IMG/VR virus record: IMGVR_UViG_3300031746_000004 | Location: 1-64,000 of that record | DNA: 64,000 bases | Origin: a virus | Lineage: Duplodnaviria > Caudoviricetes | Reading direction: 5' to 3' (one strand) | Part shown: positions 3,351 to 19,571 of the stretch, piece after piece | How positions within the stretch are numbered: position 1 is the stretch's first letter | Layout: each line of letters opens with the position of its first letter | Program-made: the position numbers and the translations under genes | The notes under the pieces: model-generated | What the model was told of the DNA's origin: nothing | What the model saw: the letters and a program-made list of their open reading frames with translations, nothing else | Database searches by the model: none

Positions 3351-3528
3351 TTTTTATTATCCTTTTTATAATTTCTTCATGTAATAATTCAGATGCTTGT
3401 CCTCTAATTTCATTATCTATTACTTTTTCTAAATTTTTACATAGATAATAAGTCGTTATTTTTGTTATTAAATGAAGACATAGAAAATAAATACAAATTC
3501 CTAATATAATTTTAATGATTATTTTCAT
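3340..3528 (-). CDS. Small membrane protein
   Basis: N-terminal hydrophobic helix; tightly packed in operon. Confidence 0.55.
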   Translation of the reverse strand: MKIIIKIILGICIYFLCLHLITKITTYYLCKNLEKVIDNEIRGQASELLHEEIIKRIIKNEN

Positions 3529-3720
3529 TTATAATCCTATTTGTAAACGTTCAGTTAATTCGATGTATTCCTTTTTTCCTAAAGGAGAACAATAATTACA
3601 TTCGAACCAATCACATCCAAAATATCCTACAAAATGTGCAAAGAATTCACATGACTCACATTTTAATTCTTCTCTAGTAAATTCACATCTATCTTTGGGA
3701 CAATATTTAATGTGTAACAT
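3529..3720 (-). CDS. Small Cys-rich hypothetical protein
   Basis: ORF abutting neighbours. Confidence 0.55.
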   Translation of the reverse strand: MLHIKYCPKDRCEFTREELKCESCEFFAHFVGYFGCDWFECNYCSPLGKKEYIELTERLQIGL

Positions 3721-4046
3721 TATTCTTTCTCCTTTAAAATTTCATATAAATAACCCATTACATTAAACATTAAAGCACAAAGAGCATCTTCTATCCCTTC
3801 TCTACTTTTATAACCTCTATGTTCCATCCACCAATCGTGAAAATGTCTCCAAGCTGATTTGATATAAGCATTTTTTGGAATTCCCTTCATCCAATTATCC
3901 GAATCTCTTAATTTTCCATCTGCTTGTTTACGATGTTTATTCATATATTCGCCATATCGTCTAATTACCAAAGGACTTAAAAATCCTTCGTAATCGTATT
4001 TTCCTTCGTCGTTATCTCTTGTAGCTCCAGTATCAAATTGTCTCAT
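3720..4046 (-). CDS. dATP/dGTP diphosphohydrolase-like protein (DUF5664-type)
   Basis: MRQFDTGATRD..GK, NWMKGIP, SAWRH, CALMFN motifs. Confidence 0.75.
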   Translation of the reverse strand: MRQFDTGATRDNDEGKYDYEGFLSPLVIRRYGEYMNKHRKQADGKLRDSDNWMKGIPKNAYIKSAWRHFHDWWMEHRGYKSREGIEDALCALMFNVMGYLYEILKEKE

Positions 4047-4216
4047 ATTTACTTCTCCATTATTTCCCGAAAGGTTGAAGATAAATAAAAATATAAAGTA
4101 TAACCAAAGCTAAATTCATTCCAAAACCCAGATTCCAATCTTTTTGAATAATACCAATTATAGTTAATCCCCCGAAAGAAGTAATAGCAATAATCTGTAA
4201 AATAAATTTAATATAG

Positions 4217-4852
4217 TTAATCATTCTTTTTCTCTTCTTCTTTTGTTTCTATTTTAGGTTCTTTTCTCTTTAATTTGTATTTTTTATCTATAAATTCTAG
4301 ATAATCGTTTAAATTATTAAATACTTCTCCACCACTAACCAAAACACCTTGTAATAAACTTTTAGGTAATTCTTTTTTCAATAAGTCGGTAATTAAATAA
4401 ATAGGAATATTATGTTCTAACGCTATTCCGCATTCAAAAAAACTGCCACAAGGTTTATCTCCTTTACTATAAGTAAAAGTTAACCAATTAGACATAGTTA
4501 CATAATCAATATCTCCTGGAATATGTACTAATTCTTCTTTTCCATCTATATATTGTTTACCTTTCCAAATCTCTTTGGCTTTTTCTTTGAATAATTCCCA
4601 ATTACCAGAAGCTACCCAGCCAGACATTTTTTCTTTTATTTCTCCTGTTCTTAAACCTGTTTTTGATGTTTCTAATTTTACAGGATTAATCGGATATACA
4701 TTTCTCAATAATAACTCTTTTTCTACAATTTCTCGTTTTTCTGTGCCGTCGTCTTTTTCGACACAAATTTCCATAGAACCAATAAGATATGTAATATATC
4801 TATACTGTTCTTCTATTTGTTCTGGAAGTGGATAACCTCTATTTTCTTCCAT
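4217..4852 (-). CDS. Nucleoside 2-deoxyribosyltransferase / (d)NMP glycosidase-fold protein
   Basis: YLIGSME start, DIDYV, GSFFECGIA..NIPIY. Confidence 0.7.
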   Translation of the reverse strand: MEENRGYPLPEQIEEQYRYITYLIGSMEICVEKDDGTEKREIVEKELLLRNVYPINPVKLETSKTGLRTGEIKEKMSGWVASGNWELFKEKAKEIWKGKQYIDGKEELVHIPGDIDYVTMSNWLTFTYSKGDKPCGSFFECGIALEHNIPIYLITDLLKKELPKSLLQGVLVSGGEVFNNLNDYLEFIDKKYKLKRKEPKIETKEEEKKND

Positions 4853-5751
4853 TAATACTTTACTCCTTCAAGAAACGCTTTAATTCTAGGTAAACTAATA
4901 GATAAAGCTAGACTAGATTCGGGTACAAAATCTAAACCTACTTTATAACCATCTACATTAGAAGGTATTCCTATTAATTCTCCTTTAATATTAAATAAAC
5001 CTCCACCTGAATTTCCAAATGTACTAGTATTGTCCGACATATAAAAATCTTCGTCTTTATTACTTAAAATTCCTTTCGAAATTGTTCTTTCATATCCTAA
5101 CGGATTGCCTATAGAATAAACAGTATCTCCTTTTATTGGTTCGTTTTCTGCTACAGGTAATTCTTCTAAATTATCATCTAATACTTTAATTTGAAGTAAT
5201 GCTAAATCATTATCAGTATCATATTTTTTTATTTCTGCTTCATATACTATTATACCTCTTACTATATTATTTTCGTCTGATTTACTATACATTACTTTTG
5301 CTTTTTCATTTATACCTTGTTCATTTATCCAAATAACATCGTCTATAACGTGAGCACAAGTTAATAGGTACATGGAATCTTTTGTCTTTTTAATTATAGT
5401 ACCAGACCCCATTCCTTCTAATCCTGACACAACAACACTTCCTTTTAGAAGTTTTTCTGTATCTGGAATAATAGGTATAATATCTTTAATTTTAGATATA
5501 TTATCATTAGTATTTTTTTCTAATTCTTGAACAGTAGCTAATATTTCTATCATATTATCAAAAGTTTCATTATTCATACTTACTAATTGACTAATTTTTC
5601 TATTTATTCTTTTTTCCGACAAAGCGATTTTCATATGTAAATTAAAAATATTTAAAATAACAAATACTATCAAAAAAACCTTAAACGTTACTAATAATAC
5701 TTTTAACGCTACTTTCAAGATTTTTTTAATCATTTTACTTTTCCTCCCCAT
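4852..5751 (-). CDS. Membrane-anchored trypsin-like serine protease
   Basis: N-terminal TM helix; LTCAHV (His), DLALL (Asp), GNSGG (Ser). Confidence 0.9.
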   Translation of the reverse strand: MGRKSKMIKKILKVALKVLLVTFKVFLIVFVILNIFNLHMKIALSEKRINRKISQLVSMNNETFDNMIEILATVQELEKNTNDNISKIKDIIPIIPDTEKLLKGSVVVSGLEGMGSGTIIKKTKDSMYLLTCAHVIDDVIWINEQGINEKAKVMYSKSDENNIVRGIIVYEAEIKKYDTDNDLALLQIKVLDDNLEELPVAENEPIKGDTVYSIGNPLGYERTISKGILSNKDEDFYMSDNTSTFGNSGGGLFNIKGELIGIPSNVDGYKVGLDFVPESSLALSISLPRIKAFLEGVKY

Positions 5752-5974
5752 AAATAAATCTATCCTCTTTTGGTTTTTGTTTTTTTATTTCTGCTATAAT
5801 AAATTGAAGTAAACATTCGTATTTATCAAAATGATAAGTTGTAAAATTTATTATTAATGCAATCGGAGTATCTTGTCCTACAATATAAACATCGCAACTT
5901 TTACCGCAAGTATCACATATTTTTTCTTTATAGTGTAGATTATTACATTCTTTACATTTAATTAACTTATACAT
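5735..5974 (-). CDS. Small zinc-finger protein
   Basis: CxxC pairs; similar to the next ORF. Confidence 0.65.
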   Translation of the reverse strand: MYKLIKCKECNNLHYKEKICDTCGKSCDVYIVGQDTPIALIINFTTYHFDKYECLLQFIIAEIKKQKPKEDRFIYGEEK

Positions 5975-6203
5975 TTTTATTATTCTCCTTTTTAATTTCG
6001 TTTCGAATGAACTCTAGCAAACATTCCTTATTACAAAAATGACATTCCATTCCATCTAAACCACTTCCGTAACCAAAACTAACTGTTATAGATATATAAT
6101 TTCCTTTTTCTGTAGATTTTTCACAATTGTCACATATATATCCTTTGAGAATATTTCTATGGCATTCCGAACAGCCTTCAATATTTTCCATTTTTTTCTC
6201 CAT
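5967..6203 (-). CDS. Small zinc-finger protein (TRASH-like)
   Basis: CxxC...HFCNKECL. Confidence 0.65.
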   Translation of the reverse strand: MEKKMENIEGCSECHRNILKGYICDNCEKSTEKGNYISITVSFGYGSGLDGMECHFCNKECLLEFIRNEIKKENNKNV

Positions 6204-6326
6204 TTAAAAATAATTTATATAAAAAATTATCTATCTTTATCTTTATTTTTTCTAATAAAGTTTTTCTGAAAATTCTATTATAATTATCAGAATATCGTTT
6301 ATTATATCCTACAAATGGTTTATCCA

Positions 6327-6638
6327 TTATTTCTTTCTTTTATGTGTTTTTCTACGTCTAAATTTTAATCCTTTAGATGAAGCTAATTTTTCTAAATATT
6401 TATCAAAAATTAATCCTAAAACGTCTCCCGAAGAATAAGATAATGCGTATAAAATTAATAAATTTATATTTTTAATATTTTCTACTATTTGAGAAACTAT
6501 ATATGCCCATAAAAATATATTAATAAAAGCAGTTATAAAAGATAATAATTTATTACTTTTTTGTCTAAATTTAGAATTTATAGTCGTTCCAAATGCTTCC
6601 AATAAACCTATTATAATAACTATTATATATTTAATCAT
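6327..6638 (-). CDS. Small multi-pass membrane protein
   Basis: Three hydrophobic segments, basic C-terminus. Confidence 0.65.
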   Translation of the reverse strand: MIKYIIVIIIGLLEAFGTTINSKFRQKSNKLLSFITAFINIFLWAYIVSQIVENIKNINLLILYALSYSSGDVLGLIFDKYLEKLASSKGLKFRRRKTHKRKK

Positions 6639-6728
6639 TCTCTTTTAATTATAAATAAATTTTATCCGTTTTTTATTAACAAATATAAACCTACTAATAA
6701 CATAATTAAAAAAATAATATTTATCATC

Positions 6729-7010
6729 TTATTTCTCCTTTTGTAATTTTAAAGATAATTTAATTAAATCATGGTCTATATTTTCTATTTCTAAAGCGTC
6801 TTTATGAATAAGATTTTTTAATCCTCGAATATCATGTCTTTCAGAAATTGCTCCTAAATCTCCCGATATAATTTTTAAATCTCTTATTATTTCTCCTAAT
6901 CTTTTAGCATCATTTAACATTTCTATATAATGAAAATTAGGAGAAGAATAATCTATGCCCAATTTCTGACAAACTTCTGCAATAGTTAAACTTATCCTTT
7001 TGCCTTCCAT
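6729..7010 (-). CDS. Hypothetical protein
   Basis: ORF track 6729..7028; likely start MEGKR behind GGAGG. Confidence 0.6.
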   Translation of the reverse strand: MEGKRISLTIAEVCQKLGIDYSSPNFHYIEMLNDAKRLGEIIRDLKIISGDLGAISERHDIRGLKNLIHKDALEIENIDHDLIKLSLKLQKEK

Positions 7011-7411
7011 TATAATTCCTCCACCCAATTACTTTGATGTAATAAAAATCTTCTTCCACATACACATTTATTATCTCCATCTTTATATATATCAATCGTT
7101 AATTCTTCTTTACAATAAGGACAAATAATACCTGCCATTTCCTCATCAATCCAAAGAAAATTTACTCTTATTTTATTAGATTTAATCATTTTTTATCTTT
7201 TTGATAATTTATACAATGTTCTTCTTCACATATAAATTCATCATTATCTGGATGATTACATAAAAAATTTTGTTCACAATCACATAGAGTTCTAAATTCG
7301 CATTTCTGAGAAAATTCTTCCCATACGTTCATAATTACCATCTCCTCACAATAAAAATTACTCCCACTATTACTAATAAAAAAATCCAAATATCAATAAT
7401 TCCAACAATTA

Positions 7412-7675
7412 TCATTCGACATCTCCGTTAGTTTCTCTTGCTTCATCTTCTCTTTTATCTAAATAACGCCTTCTAAATTCATCTGCACAATGTTGAATTG
7501 CATAAACACAATCATGAAGGGTGGAATATCTATTTTCTCTGGTTGACATAAATTTCTTCATAAGAGTAAATACTAAATATTCCAAATCTCCTTTAGTTTC
7601 TATTCCAGTAGAAGATTTAATTGCTTTCATTATTATATAATATTTATCTCTTTGAGTTTGATTAATATAAGGCAT
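7412..7675 (-). CDS. Hypothetical phage protein (MPYI-start, DUF6899-like)
   Basis: MPYI start, GDLEY, EFRRR...NGDV end. Confidence 0.65.
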   Translation of the reverse strand: MPYINQTQRDKYYIIMKAIKSSTGIETKGDLEYLVFTLMKKFMSTRENRYSTLHDCVYAIQHCADEFRRRYLDKREDEARETNGDVE

Positions 7676-8041
7676 TTTATCTCCTATCTATTAATTCCTT
7701 TATCAATTCAATACCTAATGAAAATATTACAAACATTCCTACTAACCAAAAAAAACATAACATTATTATAACTATAACTTTTATCATTTTAATTTTTTAG
7801 ATAATATATATAATAAACTTCCAATAATCGTTGCTATTAAAATCGCTAAAATTTTCATTTTATTCTTCCCTTGCAGATAAAATTAAACCACATTTCGAAC
7901 AAACTCGATTTAAACCTATTCCCTCGAAAGTATGATTTTTAATAATAATCTTAGGATTTTGGCATTTATTTACATCTATTGCTCCCTTTTCTTCTAAAAT
8001 AATTATTTCGGTATGACATTTTTTATCCATTTTCTTTTCTC

Positions 8042-8428
8042 CTATTTTATTTGATTTATTTCTTTTAAAAGGTCATCAAATACTTCTTTTCTTAAATTAC
8101 CATTGCTGTAAAAATCACGCCAAAATTGTCTGCGTCTTTGGCGATTAATTCCTGATTTTTCCATTTTTTCGTCAACGTATTTAAGTATTTTTATACAACG
8201 TTGAAGGTCTACTTTTATTTGTTGATATTTATTATATTCTTTTTTCTTTTTCTGATATTCTATATCGAAAACTAAAAATAAACTATTATATAATCTTATC
8301 AGTTCTCTTAAATAGGCTTTTCCTGTATCTCTAAATAGATAAATAATTTCTTTTAAAGATTTTTTAGTTTTTATCTGAGTAATTAAATATTTAATTAATC
8401 CTAAATGTAACTTAATTAATTGATTCAT
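8042..8428 (-). CDS. Hypothetical basic protein
   Basis: ORF with GGAG RBS. Confidence 0.6.
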   Translation of the reverse strand: MNQLIKLHLGLIKYLITQIKTKKSLKEIIYLFRDTGKAYLRELIRLYNSLFLVFDIEYQKKKKEYNKYQQIKVDLQRCIKILKYVDEKMEKSGINRQRRRQFWRDFYSNGNLRKEVFDDLLKEINQIK

Positions 8429-8652
8429 TTAAAGTATTCTCCTTCCATTTAAATAAAATCCTAATGAATTAGTTGTAAAACAAAAATGGTAATACTTATC
8501 AAAAATTCTAAACCATTTACTTATTGTCATTTTCTCTCCTTTAAATATTTCTCTATATATTCTGCTAAACTTTCTACATCTTCTTCTATTAAAGAAGAAA
8601 TATTTCTTTTATCCCAATTTATAATAGCTTTTTTAATTTGTTTCTTCATTCC

Positions 8653-8698
8653 CTACTCCTTATAATTAAAGTATATACTATATTCCGCACCAAACCTA
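8653..8698 (-). promoter_or_regulatory. Promoter plus RBS block, copy of repeated motif (TAGGTT-N17-TATACT...TTAATTATAAGGAG)
   Basis: Near-identical blocks at 28255-28302 and 30616-30663. Confidence 0.75.
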
Positions 8699-8737
8699 AT
8701 CGTATTTTACCTATAATTAAAAAATTTCTATTTCTCA

Positions 8738-9259
8738 TTAAAATAAACTTTTTTGTTTTATTTCTTGTTTAGTTCCTGTATTTATTTCTTCAATATCAAA
8801 TCCTAATCGTTTAGCGTAATTTTTCATATTTAAAGATTTAGTTATTGTAGTTTTTACAAAAGTTTCGCTTGAATTAGACCCTGTAGTTTCTCTTCTTTTA
8901 CAACTATCTTCTAAAGTACAATAAAAATAATATAATTTTGTAGATACTTTTAATTTAGCAATAGCATCGAATACTTTAGTTTGATTTATTCTATCGCCTT
9001 CCATAATTATAGTATCGTAATTATTAATATTTTGGTTTATAAATTCTATAATTTGAGATTGAATTGTCATACTTAATACGTCCGTTCCACAACAACGTTT
9101 ATCAGAAGTGTAATCTCCTATCAAACAAATTTTATCTTGAGAAATAGTATGTTTAAACGGTTTCTCAATTAATTTTATAGGTTCTTTACAATAATTTTGT
9201 TTTACAAAAGTTGTTTTTCCTGAAGCACTTTGACCTATTATAATAATTATTTTATACAT
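8738..9259 (-). CDS. P-loop kinase, 5-hydroxymethyluracil-DNA kinase-like
   Basis: IGQSASGKTT Walker A; IGDY...GTDVLS; MEGDR; adjacent to amino acid:DNA transferase. Confidence 0.8.
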   Translation of the reverse strand: MYKIIIIIGQSASGKTTFVKQNYCKEPIKLIEKPFKHTISQDKICLIGDYTSDKRCCGTDVLSMTIQSQIIEFINQNINNYDTIIMEGDRINQTKVFDAIAKLKVSTKLYYFYCTLEDSCKRRETTGSNSSETFVKTTITKSLNMKNYAKRLGFDIEEINTGTKQEIKQKSLF

Positions 9260-10266
9260 AAACTACCTTTTTTTGGTTCACATTTATTACATCTAATCTG
9301 ATATTTTTTAATATTAATACGAGATTGTAATTTATTATATTCAACTAAATTATCTTTATCAAAAATTTTTAATCTATTTTCTAATATAAAATTATCTATT
9401 GAAGTTATAGTATTAATTTTATATTGTTTATCTATTAATTTTAAATACATATCATCTAAATCCATATTTAAATAATAACTTCCTACTGCTATAGAATGAT
9501 AATTACATAATACTGTTTCTGTTTCGAACCAAGACATTTTGAAATCTTTTTTCCAAGGAACTTTACCCTCTACTAGCAATCCTATTTCTTCTGTCCATTC
9601 ATCTAATTTCATTGTTACAAATCTATAATTATCTTTAATCCATTTATGATTTTTTACATCTTGATTACATAATGCCAATATCGCTTCTCCTACTCCAGCT
9701 AATCGTTCTCTTACAAATAAATCTATACACCGTAAATCTATTTCGTCAGAAGTTTGAGTAATCAAATCAGAATATTTAAAAGCACTCCAAACTCCACCTA
9801 ATGGTAAATCTCTGATAGCTCGATTGATAGCTATAAATTTAGAAGCATCTTCGTCGGATTGAGTATTTTCTTCTATTATATATTTATCGAAATAATTACA
9901 TAAAGTTTTTTCTGGATATAAATATTTAATAAGTTTTTCTAATATTAAAGATAAACCTCCTGACCAATAAATTCCTCTTCTATCGCTACCTATTTTTATA
10001 TCTTTTAAATATTTATATTTCCATATTTCGTTTTTATAAGCTATTTCTAACGAAGGATAAGAAGTAAGTAATTCTAAAGTCCATGGTAAATTATAAACGT
10101 ACACATATAATAAACATCCCCATAAACGTTGTTCTTTATCGTAGTTATATTTATCGAAAAATTGTTTTAAAATAGGATATACAGGGTCTATGTCTCCGCT
10201 ATGAATAGAACAAACAGACATCGTAAAAAAATCTTTTTCTGTCATAGGATAAATTAATTTAGCCAT
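9247..10266 (-). CDS. Amino acid:DNA transferase (aGPT-PPlase clade 2-like)
   Basis: GDIDPVY, W...Y...Y, GSDRRG, GGVWSAFKYSD (HhH-like), ETETVLC motifs. Confidence 0.8.
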   Translation of the reverse strand: MAKLIYPMTEKDFFTMSVCSIHSGDIDPVYPILKQFFDKYNYDKEQRLWGCLLYVYVYNLPWTLELLTSYPSLEIAYKNEIWKYKYLKDIKIGSDRRGIYWSGGLSLILEKLIKYLYPEKTLCNYFDKYIIEENTQSDEDASKFIAINRAIRDLPLGGVWSAFKYSDLITQTSDEIDLRCIDLFVRERLAGVGEAILALCNQDVKNHKWIKDNYRFVTMKLDEWTEEIGLLVEGKVPWKKDFKMSWFETETVLCNYHSIAVGSYYLNMDLDDMYLKLIDKQYKINTITSIDNFILENRLKIFDKDNLVEYNKLQSRINIKKYQIRCNKCEPKKGSLCIK

Positions 10267-10399
10267 TTTTTATTATATGAGAAAGTTTCATATGTTCGCT
10301 ACTATTTTTACATAATTGGAGATTTTCGATTCTATCATCGTCTCTAATTTGATTGATATGATGAACTAATTCTTTACGACAATCTATACAACGATTCAT
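10259..10399 (-). pseudogene. Collapsed HNH endonuclease remnant (46 aa); not in the ORF track
   Basis: MNRCIDCRKE fused directly to LVHHINQIRDDDRIENLQL...EH. Confidence 0.75.
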
Positions 10400-10401
10400 T
10401 T

Positions 10402-11259
10402 CTAGCCACCTGCATTCCAAAATAAAACTTTATCACTTAAAATTTTTCTATTTTCTATTAACCACTTCCACGCTTTAGCATCGTATTGTAAATTACAAGG
10501 AAATTCTAAGGGATATATTGAACTTAAATCGTAATATTTCCAACCCATATCTATAAATTTTACTCTTTTTTGTTCTGTTGGAGTTAATTTAATAGGTTTT
10601 CTTTCTTGTATTAATATAGCATAAATAAAAATATTATTTATATTTTGTAAAAATCCTGTGCCTTGTAAAAGTCCTTGAAGTAATCCTCCAGTGGACATAC
10701 AAACTACAATTTCTTTAATATTAGTTAAATCTGTTTTTTTAACTTCTTGAGATATTCCTAATTTCATAAAACTTTTATCTCCGCCCAATGGAATCATATA
10801 TTGTACTTCATGACGATGTTTATACCAATGAATTTTAACCAAATATTTTCTATCATAAAAATGAATTTTAGCTCCATATTTTTCTATATCTTTTAATCTT
10901 AATTGAGATACTTCTCTAACTTCTTTAGGTAATTTTTCTATAGGTTTGCCCCAAATATGTAGTTCTAAATTTAAATATTTACAAATACTTGCTACACATT
11001 TTGCTGCTCTATAATCTCCTGCTTCTTCCCATCCTATAATAGTTAATCCTTGTTCTTTAATATTAGTTAATTCAGGAAGAAATCCTCTTGCCTTAGAAAA
11101 TCTTTCTACGTTACAACACATATCTTCTCTTTTCACAAAAATATTATATAGAGGATAATATTCTACAGGAGTATTTTCGTATAATTGAAAATTTTCGTAA
11201 GGAGTTATTACTCCTGCTTGTCTTCCGTAAGGATAGATATTTTCGACCAATCTTTCCAT
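10402..11259 (-). CDS. PLP-dependent fold-type II enzyme (DNA-modification decarboxylase-like)
   Basis: TPVE, FVKRED, FSKARG (PLP lysine), STGG, YDAKAW, LFWNAG. Confidence 0.8.
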   Translation of the reverse strand: MERLVENIYPYGRQAGVITPYENFQLYENTPVEYYPLYNIFVKREDMCCNVERFSKARGFLPELTNIKEQGLTIIGWEEAGDYRAAKCVASICKYLNLELHIWGKPIEKLPKEVREVSQLRLKDIEKYGAKIHFYDRKYLVKIHWYKHRHEVQYMIPLGGDKSFMKLGISQEVKKTDLTNIKEIVVCMSTGGLLQGLLQGTGFLQNINNIFIYAILIQERKPIKLTPTEQKRVKFIDMGWKYYDLSSIYPLEFPCNLQYDAKAWKWLIENRKILSDKVLFWNAGG

Positions 11260-12989
11260 TTTAATGCCTTTGCTTGTGGTAAAATAGAATTATTACAAGA
11301 TACTTTTCCTTTTTCTTCGCAATATAAACAATTACCATAGCAAGACTCTAAAGGTTCGAATCTTGACCCTCTTCTAACAAAAATAGGAACTCTTTTGCCG
11401 TGACATTGATGAGCAGTTGTAAAGGTTTCCCCTAAAGATTCTCCTGCAAGATTTATTTGTGAAGGTTTATATTCATAACATAATCCCATAGTCGCTTTAT
11501 CTTTCCAGATTGTAATAAATTTTTGATGTAATTTTTTTAACCATTCTAATCTAATTACATAATTAGTAGATATTTGATTACCTACATTTTGTCCAAATGT
11601 ATTATTAAAATATTCTAAACGTTCAGGATAATTAATAAATCTTTGTTGTAATTGTTGTTTAAAAGATTTATAATTTCCTATATCTTGTTCTACAAATTTA
11701 AAAATAAAATGTTTTACTCCTATAGATATACCTAATTCTATTAATTGTTCTAATTCTTCATAAGTTATTATGCCTGGAATTATAGGATTAACTTGCCAAC
11801 CAATATAAATTTTATCTGAAATATTTTTAATTTGAGAAAATATATCTTTTAAAGATGCTGCTCTCGGACTTAATCTTCGCCAAATTTCTTCGTTAGATGT
11901 ATTAATACTATATTGTAAATAAGAATATTTATTTTTTAGTAAATATTCTATTCCCCATTGAGGCACTATTTGTCTTGTTAAATAGAAAATAGGAAGTTGA
12001 TATTTTGTAAACACTTCGGATAAACGTTCGGTAATATGATAAATAGATTCTAAAGGATTAAAACATTCTGTAAAAGAAGAAATATAACCTATAGTAGCTG
12101 TTTTTAATTTATTTAAATCTTTATCTATTTTTTCTGGATAATAAGGGTCGACCGTTGTAGTGTGAGTTAATCTATATCCTCTCACTCCAAAATTAACGTA
12201 ACAATTATGAACTAAAATATTTTCAGCAAAAAAGTTTTCGGTGGTAGTTTGTAAATCATAAACTATTTGTTCTCCTTCTAATTTCTTAATCGATAATATT
12301 TTTACGCAATGAATAATTTCTAAATCCTCTATTTCTTTATTAAACATAGGATTATGAAGTTTCATAAAATCTCTTCTTTTAAAACGACTAGTTATATTTT
12401 GTAATTCAGTATAATCTAATAAAATATCTAATTCTATATCTAAATTATTAGCTTTGACCCAACCTCTATTTTCGGTATAAATTTTATGGTCTGAAGTAAC
12501 TTTAAGATTTTTTTTATTACTTAAAGTTATTTCTAGCAAATCTGATTTATAACCTCCCCATTTCCCTATAACTTTTGTAGGGATAGATATGTTATCCTTA
12601 AATCCCCAAATTAAATCTCCTACATTAATATCTTCTATCTTCTTAATACCTCCCGAAATTTTATTTTTACCATTTCTTATTACAGTTCTGATTGTAGTTC
12701 CTTCGCTTAAACAAAACACACAACCTACAGGACAAAATCCAGCATAAGGTCGAGTTAAAAATGCTTCTGAATAACAAGGTCGATTTCTTCTTCCTAAAGG
12801 TTCATGTTTATCTTTATACCAACCTCGTAATTGTGGAGATTTATTAGGTAATAATATATGAGGAATAGGTTTTTTATAAACTACATATTTACGAGTTTTA
12901 CCACCTTTGACTATAGCATAATTAACTTCTTCCGAAAGTCCTCTTAATTCGTTAATATTAGAAGGTTCTTTATAAGTAATATCTATCAT
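11208..12989 (-). CDS. Radical SAM enzyme with intein (glycinyl-thymidine isomerase-like)
   Basis: CPVGCVF[intein]C motif; likely start MIDIT at 12989 via ATGA overlap; C-terminal CYGNCLYC. Confidence 0.85.
   Translation of the reverse strand: MIDITYKEPSNINELRGLSEEVNYAIVKGGKTRKYVVYKKPIPHILLPNKSPQLRGWYKDKHEPLGRRNRPCYSEAFLTRPYAGFCPVGCVFCLSEGTTIRTVIRNGKNKISGGIKKIEDINVGDLIWGFKDNISIPTKVIGKWGGYKSDLLEITLSNKKNLKVTSDHKIYTENRGWVKANNLDIELDILLDYTELQNITSRFKRRDFMKLHNPMFNKEIEDLEIIHCVKILSIKKLEGEQIVYDLQTTTENFFAENILVHNCYVNFGVRGYRLTHTTTVDPYYPEKIDKDLNKLKTATIGYISSFTECFNPLESIYHITERLSEVFTKYQLPIFYLTRQIVPQWGIEYLLKNKYSYLQYSINTSNEEIWRRLSPRAASLKDIFSQIKNISDKIYIGWQVNPIIPGIITYEELEQLIELGISIGVKHFIFKFVEQDIGNYKSFKQQLQQRFINYPERLEYFNNTFGQNVGNQISTNYVIRLEWLKKLHQKFITIWKDKATMGLCYEYKPSQINLAGESLGETFTTAHQCHGKRVPIFVRRGSRFEPLESCYGNCLYCEEKGKVSCNNSILPQAKALKWKDWSKISILTEDKQE
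12204..12713 (-). mobile_element. Mini-intein (170 aa), no intact endonuclease
   Basis: Starts CLSEGT; block B VTSDHKIY; block F VYDLQT..NFFAE; ends LVHN followed by +1 Cys. Confidence 0.93.
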
Positions 12990-14323
12990 AATATTCCTTC
13001 TTTTTTCCAACGAAATTCGTAAAGACGAGGAGAATATTCATAAATCAATAATCCTCTTTCGTCAACTTTTATTGGTTTTAATATTCCTTGATAATGAGAA
13101 TAAGGATTACAACCACTATTTAAATTATTCCAAGTATTTATAAACTCTCGAATATGACCTGTTTTTAATTGAGCATAATCTACTTGCCAATACTTTATAG
13201 AATCACCATAATATTTATATTCGGTAGCCCAATTATCCCACATTGTTTTTTCTATATCTTCAAATTTTAAATATTTATCTTTACCTTCACTAATCCAATA
13301 TCTTTTTCTTAATTCTTTTAAATGAAAAGTAATTTGTCCTTTACTAAAATTAGTAAGTTCTGGATTTATAGGATATTCGTCGGGGAGTCCGCAACAACAA
13401 CCTGAATAATTTAATTCTTTAAAATCAGGGTCGCTAATACTAATTCCTAATCCTAATTTTTTACAAGTTATATAAATACGTTTCATAAATATTTCTTTTA
13501 CATCTCGATTTAAACGTAAATAAGTACCTCTTTCGGTAGGAGAAAGTTTCTTATAAAAAGGTAAAATATCAAATCCTATTATATTACTTATATTTTTAAA
13601 TCTTTCTTTTAATAAAGGTGCTGCTCTTTCATCTATAGCAAAAAATTCCGTAGATATAGCTTTAGCTCCTGCTTGTTTAGCTTTAGTCAATAATTCTTCT
13701 AATCCTATATCTGTTATTCCTATAATAAAAGGTCGTAAACGTAATATAGTATAATATCCTAATTCCGACATTTTTTTAATTACCGATAATCGTTCCGAAG
13801 TAGAAGGAGTATTAGGTTCTATTTTTTTAGAAATTTCATCACTATTTGTAACTATAGAAAGTTGAAAAGCAAAATTTTTATACTTACTTCCTTCTTCAAA
13901 AATTTTCATATATTCTGGATTATCTAAAAACATCGATAAACCTTTAGTGGAAATTAAAGTGGGATAATGTAATTCTAATAAAGTTTTAATTATATCTAAT
14001 GTAATTTTATGTTTCTTTTCTATATAATCAAAACAATCTGTAAGACCTCCTATATGAAGAATAAATCGTTTAGAATAGAAATGTTGATAATAAGGATTAT
14101 CAATCTTTTTACCCATTATTAGTTCTCTAAAACTTTTAGGATTAACTAATTTTAATTCGGGTGATTTTTTACAGGCAGGATTTGTCGATGCAAATTGAGC
14201 AGCAAAACAATATTGACAACCGAAACTACATTTAGTAGTAGTATCGGCTGTTAAAGGAAGTGCACAATCAGTAAACTCTGAACTTATCCTACCAAATTTA
14301 TAATTATGTTTAAAATTTTCCAT
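12986..14323 (-). CDS. Second radical SAM enzyme (spore photoproduct lyase-like superfamily)
   Basis: CSFGCQYC; GGLTD, ISTK, IEPNTPS..ERL, LRLRPFIIG, GCCCG. Confidence 0.9.
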   Translation of the reverse strand: MENFKHNYKFGRISSEFTDCALPLTADTTTKCSFGCQYCFAAQFASTNPACKKSPELKLVNPKSFRELIMGKKIDNPYYQHFYSKRFILHIGGLTDCFDYIEKKHKITLDIIKTLLELHYPTLISTKGLSMFLDNPEYMKIFEEGSKYKNFAFQLSIVTNSDEISKKIEPNTPSTSERLSVIKKMSELGYYTILRLRPFIIGITDIGLEELLTKAKQAGAKAISTEFFAIDERAAPLLKERFKNISNIIGFDILPFYKKLSPTERGTYLRLNRDVKEIFMKRIYITCKKLGLGISISDPDFKELNYSGCCCGLPDEYPINPELTNFSKGQITFHLKELRKRYWISEGKDKYLKFEDIEKTMWDNWATEYKYYGDSIKYWQVDYAQLKTGHIREFINTWNNLNSGCNPYSHYQGILKPIKVDERGLLIYEYSPRLYEFRWKKEGIL

Positions 14324-14324
14324 A

Positions 14325-14654
14325 TTATATATTTTCTAATAATTTAAATAATTCTAATATCAAACGAATATCCTTAATTTGTTTAGTATGAGGATTAAAT
14401 ATTAAGTATTTACCTAATAATTTTAAATCTTCTTCACTATCTACAAAAATTTCTATTTTATAACGTAATCCTTCTTCATTTTTAGCTAAAAGAGAAATTT
14501 TTTCTAATTTTTCGGGAGTAAGTACCCAAGATGCCTTATAAGTTGCTATATTTTCTGGAATACCTTCTTTTTCAAATTTATTTTTTAATTCGTTATATAC
14601 TTCCCATTTATTTCCCAAAGCTGTCTTAATATCTAAATAATCTGTTAATTTCAT
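14325..14654 (-). CDS. Hypothetical protein
   Basis: Tightly packed between clamp loader and radical SAM genes. Confidence 0.65.
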   Translation of the reverse strand: MKLTDYLDIKTALGNKWEVYNELKNKFEKEGIPENIATYKASWVLTPEKLEKISLLAKNEEGLRYKIEIFVDSEEDLKLLGKYLIFNPHTKQIKDIRLILELFKLLENI

Positions 14655-15022
14655 AATCCTAACTCCATTTTTAATTTTTCTTTGTCTAATAATTTATCTA
14701 TAAAAGGTTTAGTTAATTCTACTTCTCTTTTATTCCATTTCATTAATTTAATTAATTCTTCGGTAACTATATCTGTTGTTTCTGTAATTTTTTCAATCTT
14801 TTTAAAATAAGGTACTTTTCCTTGAGGAATGGTATAATATAAATTATAATATAAATGTAACGGATTAACGATAAATAAATAATTTAAAATATTACTCACT
14901 ATATCTTGTAACTTTTTATCTTGAGCAAGATAATATAAAATTATAACTAATTCTTCGGCAGTCGTAGTTTCTGGTAATTTATTCTTTAAATATAATGTAT
15001 TAATTAATTTAAAGTCAAACAT
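14651..15022 (-). CDS. Putative clamp-loader small subunit (gp62 position)
   Basis: Position directly after RFC-like ATPase, and size; inference from synteny. Confidence 0.5.
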   Translation of the reverse strand: MFDFKLINTLYLKNKLPETTTAEELVIILYYLAQDKKLQDIVSNILNYLFIVNPLHLYYNLYYTIPQGKVPYFKKIEKITETTDIVTEELIKLMKWNKREVELTKPFIDKLLDKEKLKMELGL

Positions 15023-15915
15023 TGTTTTATTCTTTCTAAATTACTTAATATTACCATTTTCTCTTTTACATTGAAATTTATTAATTTTTCCATTTGACAA
15101 AGTATTTCGCATAATTTACCTACTTTAGAAAAAGATAATTTACTGTTAGTTATATAAATAAAAAGATAATCTATAAATTCTTTTATATTTATTTCGTCGC
15201 TCATTATTTTTACTTTAGCATTATCATAATCTCCAGAAGATATTAATTTTAATAAATTTTCATTTTTACCCCTTTGGTCTAATAATTCTACAGGAATACC
15301 TTGTTTAATACTTTGAAGATGTAAAACCATTCTTCTTATATCAGGATAATATTTATTGATTATATAATCTATATTATCTATTTTTACTTCTTCTATTTTA
15401 ATTATTTGTAATAAATAATTTTTAATTTGGTCTTTAGGCGGTAAATTAAAATTAATATTTACACATCTACTAACTAAAGGTTCTATAATTTTTTCTATAT
15501 GATTTGCTGTTAAAATAAAAAAAGCATTATTAATAGTTTCTTCCATTAAATTTCTTAAAGAATTTTGTGCTTGCGAAGTCAATCCGTCTGCTTCGTCCAA
15601 TATTACTGCTTTCTTCACCCCTATCTTTAAAGATTTATTTTTAGTAAAATTACTAACTTGTTCTCTAATTATATCTATTCCTCTATCTGAAGAAGCATTT
15701 AATGTTAATATATCGCTACCTAATAAATGACAAAGTAGATAAGCTGTAGATGTTTTCCCTGTTCCTGCAGAAGAAGAATATAATAATAGATGAGGAATTT
15801 TTTCAGGTTCTTTAGATATTTGAGTTAAAAAAGTTTTGTATTTATCGTCTATTACTAAAGATTCTAAAATCTTTGGACGATATTTCTCAATCCATACAAT
15901 ATTTTTTGTATCCAT
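15004..15915 (-). CDS. Clamp-loader AAA+ ATPase (RFC small / T4 gp44-like)
   Basis: WIEKYRP, AGTGKTS, LNASSDRGID, ILDEAD, SRC, YPDIRR. Confidence 0.93.
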   Translation of the reverse strand: MDTKNIVWIEKYRPKILESLVIDDKYKTFLTQISKEPEKIPHLLLYSSSAGTGKTSTAYLLCHLLGSDILTLNASSDRGIDIIREQVSNFTKNKSLKIGVKKAVILDEADGLTSQAQNSLRNLMEETINNAFFILTANHIEKIIEPLVSRCVNINFNLPPKDQIKNYLLQIIKIEEVKIDNIDYIINKYYPDIRRMVLHLQSIKQGIPVELLDQRGKNENLLKLISSGDYDNAKVKIMSDEINIKEFIDYLFIYITNSKLSFSKVGKLCEILCQMEKLINFNVKEKMVILSNLERIKQCLTLN

Positions 15916-15916
15916 T

Positions 15917-16594
15917 TTAACTCACTTCCGCTACTAAAATTTCTATCTTAAAATCTTCGGTTTCTTGTTTTATCAGGATAGGAGAATTATTTTTTAAAAC
16001 CAATTCTACTTCTCCCTCTAATCCTTGAATGGCTTCTACAAAAGAATTACTCATCCTAACTTTCGCTTCTCCTGAACCTTCTATTAATTCTATTGTATCT
16101 ATTATATTATCTTTATTTTCTTCTAAAATACTCACTATTAAATCTTTTCCTTTTAATTCTAAATCGAAAAAAGTAGATTCAGTAGCTATTAAATAATTTT
16201 CTATATTTCTTAAATTTTTTAAATCTACTTTTATAGAAGAAACTCCTTCCAAAATTTTTATGATATTATTAAAATTCTTTTCTTCTACTTTACTATTTAT
16301 ATATTCTGGAGATTTTAATAATACATTTACTTTCTTTTTTCCTTCGCTTAACATTAATCTATTATCTTTTAATTCTATTTTAACTTTAGGTAATAAATCT
16401 AAATACTTTTTTAAACTATTTAATTTCTGAAGTCCTATAATTTCTTTAGTATCTAATATAGACTTTTTTGCTGTTAATCTTATAGCAATACTTTGGTCTG
16501 GAGAAGTAGCTAAAATCTTTTTATCGTTTACTACTATTTCATTTATTTCTCTTTGACCTTTTAAAGTTACTGATTTTAAAATATTTTTTAGCAT
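15917..16594 (-). CDS. Putative sliding clamp (gp45/PCNA-like)
   Basis: 225 aa, immediately upstream of clamp loader; NSPILIK...ILVA C-terminus as in PCNA-type clamps. Confidence 0.7.
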   Translation of the reverse strand: MLKNILKSVTLKGQREINEIVVNDKKILATSPDQSIAIRLTAKKSILDTKEIIGLQKLNSLKKYLDLLPKVKIELKDNRLMLSEGKKKVNVLLKSPEYINSKVEEKNFNNIIKILEGVSSIKVDLKNLRNIENYLIATESTFFDLELKGKDLIVSILEENKDNIIDTIELIEGSGEAKVRMSNSFVEAIQGLEGEVELVLKNNSPILIKQETEDFKIEILVAEVS

Positions 16595-16604
16595 TTTCTT
16601 CCTC

Positions 16605-17324
16605 CTAAAATTTAATAGTAAATTTTCCTAATACTTTCTCAAAAAATCCTCGTTCTCCTTTATTAAATCCTGTTCCTACACTTACTCCAAATGCTGAATT
16701 TTCGGTTAGTTTATAAGATACTCCGAAAGGATAAAATCCTCCGTTCGTTAAACAAATATCCGCAACCCATTTAAAATATTTAGCATATCTAACCCCTATT
16801 CCATATTCCATTCCTGCTTTTACATTACTAATTCCTAATCCACCAACTGCTATAGGTTCTAAAATAAATCCATACGGTTTTAAATATTTTCTCAAATTAT
16901 CTAAATCCTTAACCTTAATATCTTTTAATACTGTTTTTTTATCTTTATCTAATACTTGCATACTTCCGTCTTTTTGGATATGTAAATAATGTTCGTTTAA
17001 TTTTACAAATTCTTCTTTTCCTCTCCAATCTATTACAACAGGTTTTCCTAATTGTCCTTTATAATAACAATAACCCCCCCAAACACCCATTACAATACCT
17101 ATAATTGCCAATCTAATTAACCAAGTTCTAATCGATAATTCTTGACTTACAGTTTTTCCCCATAAATCCGACCTAACAACTGACGTAATTCCTGTTACTA
17201 ATTTTTTTGTATCAAATTTTTCATTTTGAATTTTTGCTTTTAATTGTCCAGAAATTAAATTTTTTAAAATCCAAATTATTATTCCTGCCAAGAAACCGCC
17301 ACTTAACAATAATATATCTTTCAT
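16605..17324 (-). CDS. Membrane protein with C-terminal beta-strand-rich region
   Basis: Two hydrophobic helices; alternating Gly/aromatic strands; terminal Phe. Confidence 0.65.
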   Translation of the reverse strand: MKDILLLSGGFLAGIIIWILKNLISGQLKAKIQNEKFDTKKLVTGITSVVRSDLWGKTVSQELSIRTWLIRLAIIGIVMGVWGGYCYYKGQLGKPVVIDWRGKEEFVKLNEHYLHIQKDGSMQVLDKDKKTVLKDIKVKDLDNLRKYLKPYGFILEPIAVGGLGISNVKAGMEYGIGVRYAKYFKWVADICLTNGGFYPFGVSYKLTENSAFGVSVGTGFNKGERGFFEKVLGKFTIKF

Positions 17325-17719
17325 TTATGCTCCCATTGGTTTTTTTAATTTATCTAAAAAATAATTTAATGATTTTAATGGTTCTTTAGTCTTTCCTTTT
17401 CCGTCTATTTCTTGTCTATGATTAACTATACCATTATACCATTTTGTTATTTCTCTAATCTTATTTTCGTATGTCTTTTGACTTCTTCCTTTTTTTCTCA
17501 TAATATCCTTTTATTGAATATAAATATTAATAAAAAACAAATTATTGCTATAAATAACTCTTTTAATATTTCCATATTACTTTTTAATTAATAAAGTATT
17601 ACTATTTAGTTATAACTAAGTTAAAATACTTACTATAATAAAGCGTAACAGTTCTTTTTTGATTAATCATTTTATATCTTTGTAATTAAATAAAAGGAGA
17701 GAAGATATTTCCTATTGAA

Positions 17720-18397
17720 TTAACCATTATCCTCATCATTATTTATGGTAGAAAATAGATTCTTCTCTCCGATTATTATTTTAATCTTTTTTGTATAAAA
17801 TTCTTGCCAAAAAGTTCTGTTAAAATTTGCTCTTACATTACATGAATTACATAAAGTAATTAAATTTTCTTCATTGTAATTTATATGATTATAATCAATA
17901 TGATGAACATCCAAAATTCTACCTCTTACTATCAAATGTTCTTCTTCGGTCATACCGCAATTTTGACAAGTATAATTATCTCGTTTGCGAATTAATTCTC
18001 TAAGTTCATCATTAAATTCTACGGGATACGACTCATAACCTTTACCATGAATATAAGCACCAGATAGTATACCTTTTCTTATTCCTGTCCTTTTTGCCCA
18101 TTTATGATAGCATTTTTGACATCTAATTCCATAAAAAGTTATATGAGTACCACAATCCATACATTTATTATTTTTGGTTTTACCATGTTTATAATTGTAA
18201 TGATTTTTACCTGTGATAGTTTTAAAATAACATTCTTGACAATGTTTTACATCTTTAGTTATTTCTTTACCACATTCACAATAATATTTTTTAAAATTTT
18301 GTTTGCGACACAAATCAGAACAATATTTTTTATTAGAACCTTTAAAAGATTTAAATTCTTTATTACACTTTGGATTTTTACAAATTTTGATATTCAT
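17720..18397 (-). CDS. HNH homing endonuclease with zinc-ribbon repeats
   Basis: RDNYTCQNC...VHHIDY...NLITLC..CN. Confidence 0.9.
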   Translation of the reverse strand: MNIKICKNPKCNKEFKSFKGSNKKYCSDLCRKQNFKKYYCECGKEITKDVKHCQECYFKTITGKNHYNYKHGKTKNNKCMDCGTHITFYGIRCQKCYHKWAKRTGIRKGILSGAYIHGKGYESYPVEFNDELRELIRKRDNYTCQNCGMTEEEHLIVRGRILDVHHIDYNHINYNEENLITLCNSCNVRANFNRTFWQEFYTKKIKIIIGEKNLFSTINNDEDNG

Positions 18398-18398
18398 T

Positions 18399-19571
18399 TT
18401 ATAGTTTAAATCCCTTTGATAATTCTATTCCTTTAAAATCTAATTCAAATGCCCAAGTCATAGGTCTGGTCTTATTCGTACCAAAAAACCATTGTTTAGG
18501 CTCTGTATAAATACCATATAATTTACGAGCATAATCATCAAAAGGTATCCATGCCCCGTTAGTTAATAAAACTCCTTTATCTCCTATTGGTTCTTTTTCA
18601 AGAGAATGAAAATGACCCATCATATAGACATCGTACTTTTCTTCTGGTAAGTTTATATAAACATCTTTAGCTTTTCTAATTCGAGTAGTTTTTGCTCCAC
18701 CACCGCTTTCATCTCCATGTGTCATAAAAAACATGTGATTATAAACTTTAGTAGAATAATATCTGGATGTAGGGATAGTAACTGTTACTTTATCATTTTT
18801 TGCAGTTTTAAACATTAATTCCAATGTTTTATAAATATGGTATTCTAAATAATTTTCAACTGGCATATCTGCTTTTCGATTACTCGTTGACATCGAATGA
18901 TTACCAACTATACAAAAAACTTCTATTTTTGGAAATAATTTGCATAATTCATTTATTAAAAATGCAAAATCCCTTACAGCATCCCAAATCTGGTTTCCTG
19001 CTATTTTGGTTATTTTAAATTCTTGCCCTTCAAAAACATAGCCATCTCCTTCTATTAAATCTCCCAATAAAAATATATTTAGTTTTTCAAAACAATATGT
19101 ATTTCTTTGCATAGAAATTATCTCTACAATCGAATCTAAATATCTCTGTAACATTATTTTTCTAATACTGTCATTGTAAGTTTCAATTTCTTTTTGTAAA
19201 GGAGGATAATAAACTTTATTCGATTTTCCTATATGCATATCGGAAATAATTGAATTAGCAATTTCAGATTTTTTATTTTTTTTGTAATCTATTAAACATT
19301 TTACTGGTTTCAATCCACATACATATTTGTCTATTTGACTATTAAAAATTTCAAATATTTGATTATACATTTCACTTCTATTATTTTTGTTTATTATAGA
19401 TTTATCTTCTTTCTCATTTTCAATCATTTTTGGTTTTCCTCTCGTCAAATTTGCTCTGCGGTGCATAACAGATTTATAGGAACGATTAAGTTCTCTCGCT
19501 ATCTCTTCCGTAGTTTTGTTCTCTTCTACCATTTCAAGTAATCTTTTTTCTTCTTTATCATTCCATTTCAT
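18399..19571 (-). CDS. Calcineurin-like metallophosphoesterase with N-terminal HTH
   Basis: SDMHIG, LGDLIE, GNH, THGD, GHFH; start MKWND at 19571. Confidence 0.88.
   Translation of the reverse strand: MKWNDKEEKRLLEMVEENKTTEEIARELNRSYKSVMHRRANLTRGKPKMIENEKEDKSIINKNNRSEMYNQIFEIFNSQIDKYVCGLKPVKCLIDYKKNKKSEIANSIISDMHIGKSNKVYYPPLQKEIETYNDSIRKIMLQRYLDSIVEIISMQRNTYCFEKLNIFLLGDLIEGDGYVFEGQEFKITKIAGNQIWDAVRDFAFLINELCKLFPKIEVFCIVGNHSMSTSNRKADMPVENYLEYHIYKTLELMFKTAKNDKVTVTIPTSRYYSTKVYNHMFFMTHGDESGGGAKTTRIRKAKDVYINLPEEKYDVYMMGHFHSLEKEPIGDKGVLLTNGAWIPFDDYARKLYGIYTEPKQWFFGTNKTRPMTWAFELDFKGIELSKGFKL

Follow-up and report, generated by a model that had tools for sequence, protein, structure and literature searches.

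Where does a phage obtain the modifiable base when its genome carries the enzymes that decorate this base, but none of those known to supply it? This question is raised by an operon in a 64,000-nucleotide stretch of viral DNA (hereafter the window), which is the first 64 kb of the 105,284-bp IMG/VR record IMGVR_UViG_3300031746_000004 (Caudoviricetes; record G000 in our set). The operon encodes a small helper protein, two radical S-adenosylmethionine (SAM) enzymes (rSAM-A and rSAM-B), a pyridoxal phosphate (PLP)-dependent enzyme, an amino acid:DNA transferase (AADT), and a P-loop kinase. To our knowledge, all characterized thymidine hypermodifications start from 5-hydroxymethyl-dU (5hmdU; base, 5hmU), which is produced either by a thymidylate synthase (TS) homologue acting on dUMP or by an O2-dependent dioxygenase acting on thymine in DNA. 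We propose, with a probability of approximately one half, that rSAM-A and its helper constitute the entry enzyme of this pathway, which would generate a 5-hydroxymethyl-type handle on thymine in DNA without oxygen and replace the dUMP hydroxymethylase or TET/JBP dioxygenase. The choice between this role and an additional tailoring step depends on the phyletic pattern of rSAM-A, as read from viral sequence records.

Sources of 5hmU in M6-type cassettes

Four of the genes resemble the cassette of Pseudomonas phage M6. According to the main text of Lee et al. (2021, PMC8989533), M6 gp51 is a glycine:DNA transferase, gp52 a PLP decarboxylase, gp53 a glycinyl-thymine isomerase, and gp54 a 5-hmdU DNA kinase. 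We refer to such cassettes as M6-type. Six-frame searches of the whole record, for which the oxidase and synthase models were PF00303, PF02511, PF12851, PF13640, and PF13532, detected no thymidylate synthase, ThyX, Tet_JBP, 2OG-FeII_Oxy_2, 2OG-FeII_Oxy_3, or dUTPase. Pfam scans of 71 of the 151 open reading frames (ORFs), comprising the cluster and all non-virion ORFs of at least 100 aa, also revealed no 5hmU-source enzyme. An earlier reading of the window, made without database searches (the sequence-only reading), had noted that neither a dUMP hydroxymethylase nor a TET/JBP gene was visible in the 64 kb. This observation was borne out and now extends to the entire 105-kb record. The Tet_JBP model was silent in 14 control genomes and responded in the loci L087, L088, L132, and L159, which provided a positive control.

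We then compared the occurrence of possible sources among M6-type cassettes. An AADT alignment recovered only 6 loci, and the census was based on kinase-clade loci (18) and rSAM-B loci (80) instead. The rSAM-B alignment recovered 150 viral loci, 80 of which were kept. Within 10 kb of rSAM-B in these 80 loci, the kinase was present in 73, the PLP enzyme in 62, a detectable AADT in 40, and rSAM-A in 6. Fifty records were tested for sources, the other 30 being mostly short contigs. A TS-family gene was found in 34 of these M6-type records, TET/JBP in 2, rSAM-A in 6, and none of the three in 8; no record carried two of the three. TS was present in 0/6 records with rSAM-A versus 34/44 of the others (Fisher p = 5e-4, uncorrected for kinship), and TS or TET/JBP in 0/6 versus 36/44. 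Among the cassette records that are at least 90% complete, 19 of 20 had TS and none of them had rSAM-A. Two of the eight records with no source are contigs that end early and are identical to a relative with rSAM-A or TS.

The rSAM-B tree requires at least four changes in the presence of rSAM-A when only well-supported branches are considered. Two loci with rSAM-A, L116 and L118, are sister to L132, which carries TET/JBP (96% support). The gene order in L116 is AADT, PLP enzyme, rSAM-B, kinase, two ORFs, and rSAM-A, and that in L132 is AADT, an extra ORF, PLP enzyme, rSAM-B, kinase, and TET; the two cassettes otherwise match. These results suggest that the source enzyme has been swapped repeatedly among M6-type cassettes, which we counted in favor of an entry role for rSAM-A.

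A TET/JBP gene was found in none of 86 rSAM-A records (0/80 of those found through rSAM-A itself), and no TS match occurred in the 16 rSAM-A records with a completeness of 90% or more. The mutual exclusivity of rSAM-A with TS or TET/JBP had been set beforehand as a test. It held among the 50 M6-type cassettes, with no overlap in the six that carry rSAM-A, but was not absolute in the wider family: 5 of the 80 records found through rSAM-A had a TS-family match, one of which was directly beside rSAM-A.

The rSAM-A family and its helper proteins

The single CxxxCxxC motif of rSAM-A (C32, C36, and C39) is invariant in 27 family members, as are C20 and the CC pair C310/C311. The best PDB match of its AlphaFold2 model (predicted local distance difference test [pLDDT] score, 92.3) was spore photoproduct lyase (SPL or SplB; PDB 4fhc, 4fhf, and 4k9r), with Z 18.8 and a root mean square deviation of 3.2 A over 263 residues (model residues 1-298). 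SPL chains were the top six matches (Z 18.6-18.8), followed by an entry at Z 16.3. We presume that C140 and Y98, numbered from PDB titles, are the hydrogen-donor cysteine and the relay tyrosine of SPL. Despite the shared fold, rSAM-A is only 13% identical to SPL and has no sequence-level match to it in PDB or NCBIfam. A profile of the 27 sequences matched no SPL chain in PDB at E <= 1 (one chance-level match was obtained), and the NCBIfam search identified neither SPL nor any other named family, with matches far below the threshold to the PA0069 family (78 bits vs 360) and the Rv2578c family. rSAM-A also differs from SPL in having approximately 150 extra C-terminal residues, which carry the invariant CC pair and contact the helper in a predicted complex, and in its genomic context, which is DNA modification and not sporulation. 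The main text of PMC8989533 describes SPL as working on a thymine C5-methylene radical within DNA. We count the fold match to such an enzyme in favor of an entry role for rSAM-A.

The relationship between rSAM-A and rSAM-B is distant (26% identity over 162 residues). Relatives of rSAM-A number 273 in a large protein collection and occur on 404 viral contigs. The latter were found with alignment queries; single-protein queries with rSAM-A and the rSAM-B C-extein found nothing. Against cultured phages, tblastn gave three weak partial matches for rSAM-A and none for AADT. The sequence-only reading had called rSAM-A an additional, SPL-like enzyme. The SPL-like fold supports the second half of this description; the first half does not stand because rSAM-A is the constant member of a family on hundreds of viral contigs.

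A FastTree phylogeny of 82 rSAM-A sequences split into two clades with 99% support, and each clade has its own neighbor. In clade I, which includes the window beside its relative L004, a homologue of the 109-aa helper adjoins rSAM-A in 39/39 rows. In clade II, one or two ParB-like genes adjoin rSAM-A in 41/43 rows, and the two exceptions are short contigs. The ParB-like assignment is based on profile matches to Noc, Spo0J, and ParB chains (E down to 1e-14). The small helper had no match in Pfam, PHROGs, or NCBIfam, and its profile gave only chance-level matches to PDB sequences. Neither a ParB_N match nor a match to the ParB-like alignment was found in record G000. We also considered whether the small helper is homologous to the ParB-like family, but the profile-profile match, to the C-terminal part of the ParB-like proteins, was weak (probability 17%, E 0.0015) and was not counted as homology.

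Structure predictions of rSAM-A with the small helper scored 0.85, 0.85, and 0.56, and the best of three controls scored 0.00; of 80 solved complexes, 58 attain the score mark applied, as do 2 of 110 mismatched pairs. At least 63% of the contacts were common to the runs, and the pLDDT of the partner was at least 65. On the rSAM-A side, the predicted interface comprises residues 249-278, which are a conserved stretch, and the C-terminal extension; on the helper side, it comprises residues 35-59. These models support the binding of the small helper by rSAM-A.

The ParB-like family of clade II also accompanies the TET/JBP gene in L132. Clade II rSAM-A genes have these neighbors and no dioxygenase. 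One subclass of phage thymine dioxygenases has been reported to need a ParB-like activator and to be linked to P-loop kinases and AADTs (PNAS 2026, main text of PMC13229309). The dioxygenase (5mYOX, TET/JBP) cassettes described there share two features with our proposal for rSAM-A: a post-replicative 5hmU route that feeds a kinase and an AADT, and an oxidizing enzyme that needs a small activator, which ParB-like genes would likewise provide in clade II. We count this parallel between helpers, together with the predicted binding of the small helper, in favor of the entry role. In contrast, the window genome has no iron/2-oxoglutarate dioxygenase and no ParB, and its helper is the 109-aa protein. 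The candidate oxidant is a radical SAM enzyme and, thus, would be independent of O2, unlike the dioxygenases. The words 'radical', 'rSAM', and 'anaerobic' do not occur in the main text of PMC13229309.

Gene neighborhoods were read from IMG/VR for 79 loci on the 404 contigs. rSAM-A was the constant gene, and the genes following it varied: short radical SAM, SPASM and B12 radical SAM, FkbM methyltransferase, GNAT, DUF2284, and SAM-synthetase-like genes as well as genes of no known family. These varied cassettes probably make different bases. Genes adjoining rSAM-A in other viruses were located at L056:11244-12098, L019:11779-13395, L025:11307-12302, L002:11330-12064, and L077:1227-1637; these loci include SAM-synthetase-like, B12-binding radical SAM, SPASM radical SAM, FkbM methyltransferase, and GNAT genes.

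A P-loop kinase was present in 25/79 loci, and 16 of these 25 had both kinase and AADT. In the kinase clade of the window, rSAM-A lies beside the kinase in 16/18 loci and in several gene orders. This linkage, which we count in favor of an entry role, agrees with the co-occurrence that the sequence-only reading had made a point of comparison. Of the 79 rSAM-A loci, 54 have neither kinase nor AADT within 10 kb. Clade I rSAM-A directly follows a sliding clamp gene, a clamp loader gene, and two small genes. Clade II rSAM-A lies outside the replication module and is still beside kinase, AADT, GNAT, or ParB genes, in changing orders.

These neighborhoods also bear on a conventional explanation, in which rSAM-A is a true repair-type lyase or a housekeeping enzyme of the replication module, for example, one that removes photoproducts from packed virion DNA, and its position merely reflects genome layout. 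SPL as the best structural match, the location of the clade I gene behind the clamp and clamp loader, the large number of loci without kinase or AADT, and the name 'DNA repair photolyase' given to several homologues by JGI are in line with this explanation. However, the clade II gene keeps its modification-type neighbors outside the replication module, no SPL sequence model matched rSAM-A, and a repair function leaves the exclusivity with TS and TET/JBP unexplained. We consider a repair or housekeeping role to be improbable.

Several points weigh against an entry role for rSAM-A. The evidence is comparative genomics, and we know of no precedent, and found none in the literature, for the hydroxylation of a DNA base by a radical SAM enzyme. 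CheckV rates the record as 70% complete, notwithstanding an exact 127-bp terminal direct repeat, and the Pfam scans covered 71 of its 151 ORFs, the other 80 being short ORFs and the virion arm. Completeness is 20-55% for the six M6-type contigs that carry rSAM-A. Three of the five TS-family matches in records found through rSAM-A exceeded the cut-off: one, which is clear, is located 8 kb away from rSAM-A in a record of 188 kb, and the other two are partial and contain internal stop codons. Moreover, an ORF of 479 aa adjoins rSAM-A on one side and the kinase on the other in L004 (11287-12723, plus strand), L042, and L081; its match to TS is weak (20 bits, sub-threshold). L004 is the closest relative of the window (rSAM-A approximately 60% identical) and is near-identical to L042. 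By eye, the ORF contains RRxxxSxW and PC motifs and a long C-terminal extension, and it stands in the place of rSAM-B, the PLP enzyme, and AADT; jackhmmer found no relative of it in record G000 or the other loci compared. TS, TET/JBP, and rSAM-A are all absent from one complete M6-type genome (G043/L121; 77.5 kb with terminal repeats, completeness 100%). Its cassette (L121:9121-16053; AADT, rSAM-B, PLP enzyme, and kinase) contains or adjoins a DUF2284 metal-binding protein, a UDG-superfamily gene, and an unannotated 262-aa ORF, and may hide a fourth substrate supply. Therefore, the absence of known sources alone does not indicate rSAM-A. The 54 loci without kinase and AADT indicate that the role of the rSAM-A family is wider than feeding the M6-type pathway.

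The main rival explanation draws on some of these points. rSAM-A and the helper may perform an extra tailoring step, on 5-phosphomethyl-dU (5-PmdU), the amino acid adduct, or the final amine, and yield an undescribed base, with 5hmU being supplied by an enzyme that the profiles do not recognize. The weak TS-like ORF of L004 and L042 is in accordance with such a supply, the sourceless G043/L121 genome implies that hidden sources may exist, and many ORFs in record G000 are unannotated. In addition, related loci place SPASM- and B12-type radical SAM enzymes, a methyltransferase, and GNAT beside rSAM-A. On the other hand, variation between cassettes would be expected of a tailoring enzyme; in fact, rSAM-A is constant and it is the tailoring genes that vary. 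A tailoring role also leaves unexplained both the exclusion of rSAM-A and TS or TET/JBP and the use, in clade II, of a ParB-type helper known from thymine dioxygenases. We regard tailoring as unlikely, although it is the strongest competitor of the entry role.

The operon and its M6-type enzymes

The order of genes in the operon is helper, rSAM-A, rSAM-B with its intein, PLP enzyme, AADT, and kinase, and all six are encoded on the minus strand (Table 1). The sequence-only reading had described five co-oriented, mostly overlapping genes at 8738-14323, with rSAM-A translationally coupled to rSAM-B. All five ORFs were found at these positions on the minus strand, three of their four junctions overlap, and the stop codon of rSAM-A does overlap the ATG of rSAM-B (ATGA at 12986-12989). 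The gene identities also hold in Pfam, PHROGs, and PDB profile and structure searches, with three Pfam scores being sub-threshold. What needed correction was the extent of the cluster, from which the helper gene adjoining rSAM-A (14325-14654) had been left out. Because this gene belongs to the operon, we draw the latter with six genes.

Table 1. Genes and intein of the operon, in order of transcription
Feature	Position in window	Strand	Remarks
Small helper protein, 109 aa, no known family	14325..14654	-	1 bp upstream of rSAM-A
rSAM-A, SPL-like radical SAM enzyme, 445 aa	12986..14323	-	Pfam Radical_SAM 32.5 bits (cut-off 29.5); motif CSFGCQYC
rSAM-B, M6 gp53-type radical SAM isomerase with mini-intein	11208..13010	-	phrog_9252 'DNA repair photolyase' 2.9e-84
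Mini-intein, 170 residues, within the CxxxCxxC motif of rSAM-B	12204..12713	-	Intein_splicing 49.1 bits
PLP-dependent enzyme, PALP fold, M6 gp52 / MP1412_11 type, predicted decarboxylase	10402..11259	-	PALP 22.9 bits; phrog_7093 1.8e-21
AADT / aGPT-Pplase2-type amino acid:DNA transferase	9247..10266	-	PF18724 23.5 bits (cut-off 26.2)
Kinase with P-loop, 5-hmdU DNA kinase type	8738..9259	-	Ploopntkinase3 (PF18751) 19.4 bits; phrog_800 5e-12

rSAM-B comprises 593 aa if translation begins at the ATG at 12989, which is the likely start, or 600 aa if it begins at a TTG. Its exteins are approximately 42% identical to 'DNA repair photolyase' proteins in 76 phage records, mostly Pseudomonas Yuavirus relatives of M6. 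The resemblance to the M6 isomerase, noted from motifs in the sequence-only reading, is thereby supported at the level of gp53-type proteins, as is the intein. The cluster motif is CPVGCVF/C in rSAM-B (the slash marks the intein site) and CTVGCAFC in M6. The intein-free homologue P0122, which is 68% identical to rSAM-B, aligns up to CVFC and resumes at CYVN. Since it aligns on both sides of the intein, the +1 Cys is the third radical SAM cluster ligand. rSAM-B is thus predicted to be inactive until the intein has been spliced. Inteins recur in the rSAM-A homologues P0030 and P0108 and in the rSAM-B homologues P0181, P0187, P0189, P0204, and P0216.

The PALP score of the PLP enzyme was below the cut-off of 35 bits. 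However, the enzyme is 29% identical to MP1412_11 from end to end (284 columns, E 8e-21), and both contain the FSK(A/I)RG lysine motif. In P0123 and P0124 (708 and 700 aa), a radical SAM domain of the rSAM-B type is naturally fused to a PALP domain, which supports the idea that the isomerase and decarboxylase would act together.

The AADT family profile matched the solved chain 25qc_A ('Amino acid:DNA transferase domain-containing protein') at E 9.1e-5. The AlphaFold2 model of the window protein was of moderate confidence (pLDDT 73). Its top three Foldseek matches were PaMx11 gp46/PUGT (PDB 8z2n and 8z2m), which we take to be a 5-PmdU glycinyltransferase; this was the sole credible PDB match (probability 1.00, target-normalized template modeling score 0.54; next E > 1), at 14% identity. 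The motifs GD(I/L)DP(V/I)Y and ETVLC are common to the window protein and the MP1412 transferase, and C254 of ETxLC is invariant in 12/12 aligned relatives. In the main text of PMC8989533, a conserved Cys and a neighboring Glu are essential in M6 gp51, and aGPT-Pplase2 (the Pfam name) and AADT (the functional name) denote the same family.

The kinase scored below the cut-off of 27 bits for Ploopntkinase3, but is 51% identical to the L004 kinase, which is over the cut-off (34.7 bits). Walker A and G48/Y50/G58/D60 (G-x-Y...G-x-D) are invariant in 15 sequences of the family. The match to MP1412_13 was weak and limited to the N-terminus, and the kinase profile found only generic P-loop matches in PDB. 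The sub-threshold Pfam calls for the PLP enzyme, AADT, and kinase are therefore each backed by other sequence or structure evidence. On the basis of the identity of rSAM-B and the PLP enzyme, the motif, profile, and fold of AADT, and the family membership of the kinase, four of the five genes in the originally described cluster form an M6-type cassette. By homology, the window contains the kinase, an AADT with the Cys/Glu pair, a gp53-type isomerase (after splicing), and a gp52-type PLP enzyme.

All four enzyme types of the M6/Yuavirus pathway for 5-aminoethyl-dU (5-NedU) are thus adjacent in the window. In the M6 relative MP1412, the transferase (annotated as a hypothetical protein of 291 aa) is followed by the PLP enzyme ('threonine dehydratase'), the radical SAM gene, and the kinase (mis-named 'terminase small subunit'), with the thymidylate-synthase homologue three genes on. 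The window differs in its gene order, the intein in rSAM-B, the helper and rSAM-A heading the operon, the lack of a dUMP hydroxymethylase in the genome, and a kinase and AADT that are very divergent from the M6 proteins.

This divergence leads to another explanation. rSAM-A may create a handle other than 5hmU on thymine or another base, by direct radical coupling at the C5-methyl group or through a phosphorylated or thiolated intermediate, to which the kinase and AADT have adapted. The rSAM-A loci that pair the gene with other radical SAM genes or with genes of no known family in place of kinase and AADT fit this explanation, as do the additional invariant cysteines C20, C310, and C311. Nevertheless, AADT keeps the Cys/Glu motif for the elimination of phosphate from 5-PmdU, the kinase keeps the conserved residues of its family, and the matches of rSAM-B and the PLP enzyme to enzymes acting on the glycine adduct of 5hmU are clearly at the level of orthologues. 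We consider a different handle to be doubtful, with a probability slightly lower than that of a tailoring role.

The cassette may also not be self-sufficient, and instead be decaying, as an intein in rSAM-B may imply, or reliant on a 5hmU source in the host or a co-infecting phage. The dependence of rSAM-B on splicing and the presence of several selfish elements in the genome (HNH, LAGLIDADG, and intein matches) are consistent with decay. However, none of the six tightly coupled reading frames is broken, conservation extends to the catalytic motifs, the signature of a splicing domain is retained in the intein, and healthy members of both radical SAM families repeatedly carry inteins. Furthermore, we know of no cellular source of 5hmdU in DNA precursors. 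This explanation appears very unlikely.

Other features of the genome, which has a G+C content of approximately 25%, were noted. A 108-aa ORF at window positions 3720-4046 (minus strand) has a sub-threshold match to the N-terminal domain of a dATP/dGTP diphosphohydrolase (MazZ-like; 24.8 bits vs a cut-off of 27) and may be a nucleotide-pool enzyme. An HD-domain protein is encoded at G000 91463-92101, and the 876-aa ORF at G000 92388-95018 has an intein/LAGLIDADG signal; more LAGLIDADG and Hint matches lie in the 72-82 kb stretch. The early arm at G000 72412-81964 (L109:412-9964) has contents that are unusual for a phage: two Clp protease matches and matches to peptide deformylase, an M50 peptidase, a BT1/MFS (folate-biopterin-type) transporter, and a Zeta-toxin/AAA_33-like kinase. 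Two ORFs within window positions 304-19607 (minus strand) match N6_N4 DNA methylase (best E 6.3e-45), and the phage may also methylate its DNA. RFC/PCNA-like genes and one homologue named for a Thermoplasmatales bin had prompted us to consider an archaeal virus; this origin was dropped in view of bacterial-type RecA, Clp, peptide deformylase, and SpoVG matches in the genome.

Proposed pathway and its implications

Gene identities and phyletic distribution were read directly from the records; from these, we infer the chemistry of rSAM-A and the nature of the final base. In the pathway with rSAM-A as the entry enzyme, helper-bound rSAM-A would act on thymine already present in phage DNA. Its 5'-deoxyadenosyl radical would abstract a hydrogen from the C5-methyl group, which is the chemistry of SPL in reverse. 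The allylic radical would then be oxidized and captured by water to give 5-hydroxymethyl-dU or an equivalent handle, with neither O2 nor a dUMP hydroxymethylase being required. By homology to the reconstituted M6 enzymes, the kinase would convert this product to 5-PmdU, and the Cys/Glu pair of AADT would replace the phosphate with an amino acid, which in the case of M6 is glycine. Spliced rSAM-B would isomerize the N-linked adduct to the C-linked form, and its decarboxylation by the PLP enzyme would yield a 5-aminoethyl-dU-like base. Protection of phage DNA from host nucleases is the probable function of the modified base.

Two further ORFs were found with Amidoligase_2 matches, at window positions 33257-34756 (minus strand; 499 aa, 24.6 bits) and at G000 72816-74480 (minus strand; 554 aa, 31.9 bits). 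The main text of Lee et al. (2021, PMC8989533) mentions amidoligase domains in some thymidine-hypermodification contigs. Acylation of the amine that the cluster produces is a possible function of these ORFs and would yield a further-modified base.

A broader proposal, which we advance tentatively and at slightly less than even odds, is that rSAM-A and its helper represent the first radical SAM enzyme to oxidize or activate the C5-methyl group of thymine in polymeric DNA. It would constitute a third, oxygen-independent route to 5hmU and a common entry for hundreds of uncultured phages with very different cassettes (kinase and AADT, extra radical SAM enzymes, methyltransferases, and acetyltransferases), and its two helper types would mirror the ParB-dependent and ParB-independent dioxygenases. 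A literature search, which covered the main texts of PMC8989533 and PMC13229309, found no paper that proposes a radical SAM source of 5hmU.

Even if the entry-enzyme idea is wrong, the present results reveal that there are M6-type cassettes for which no known 5hmU source is present. The locus joins the candidate and its helper to four enzymes with reconstituted homologues, and the question is therefore directly testable, with 5-NedU or a close relative as the read-out. If correct, an entry role for rSAM-A would extend radical SAM chemistry on DNA by a new type of reaction and offer a tool for the oxygen-free, post-synthetic functionalization of thymine. It would also explain how phages of anoxic habitats decorate their DNA.

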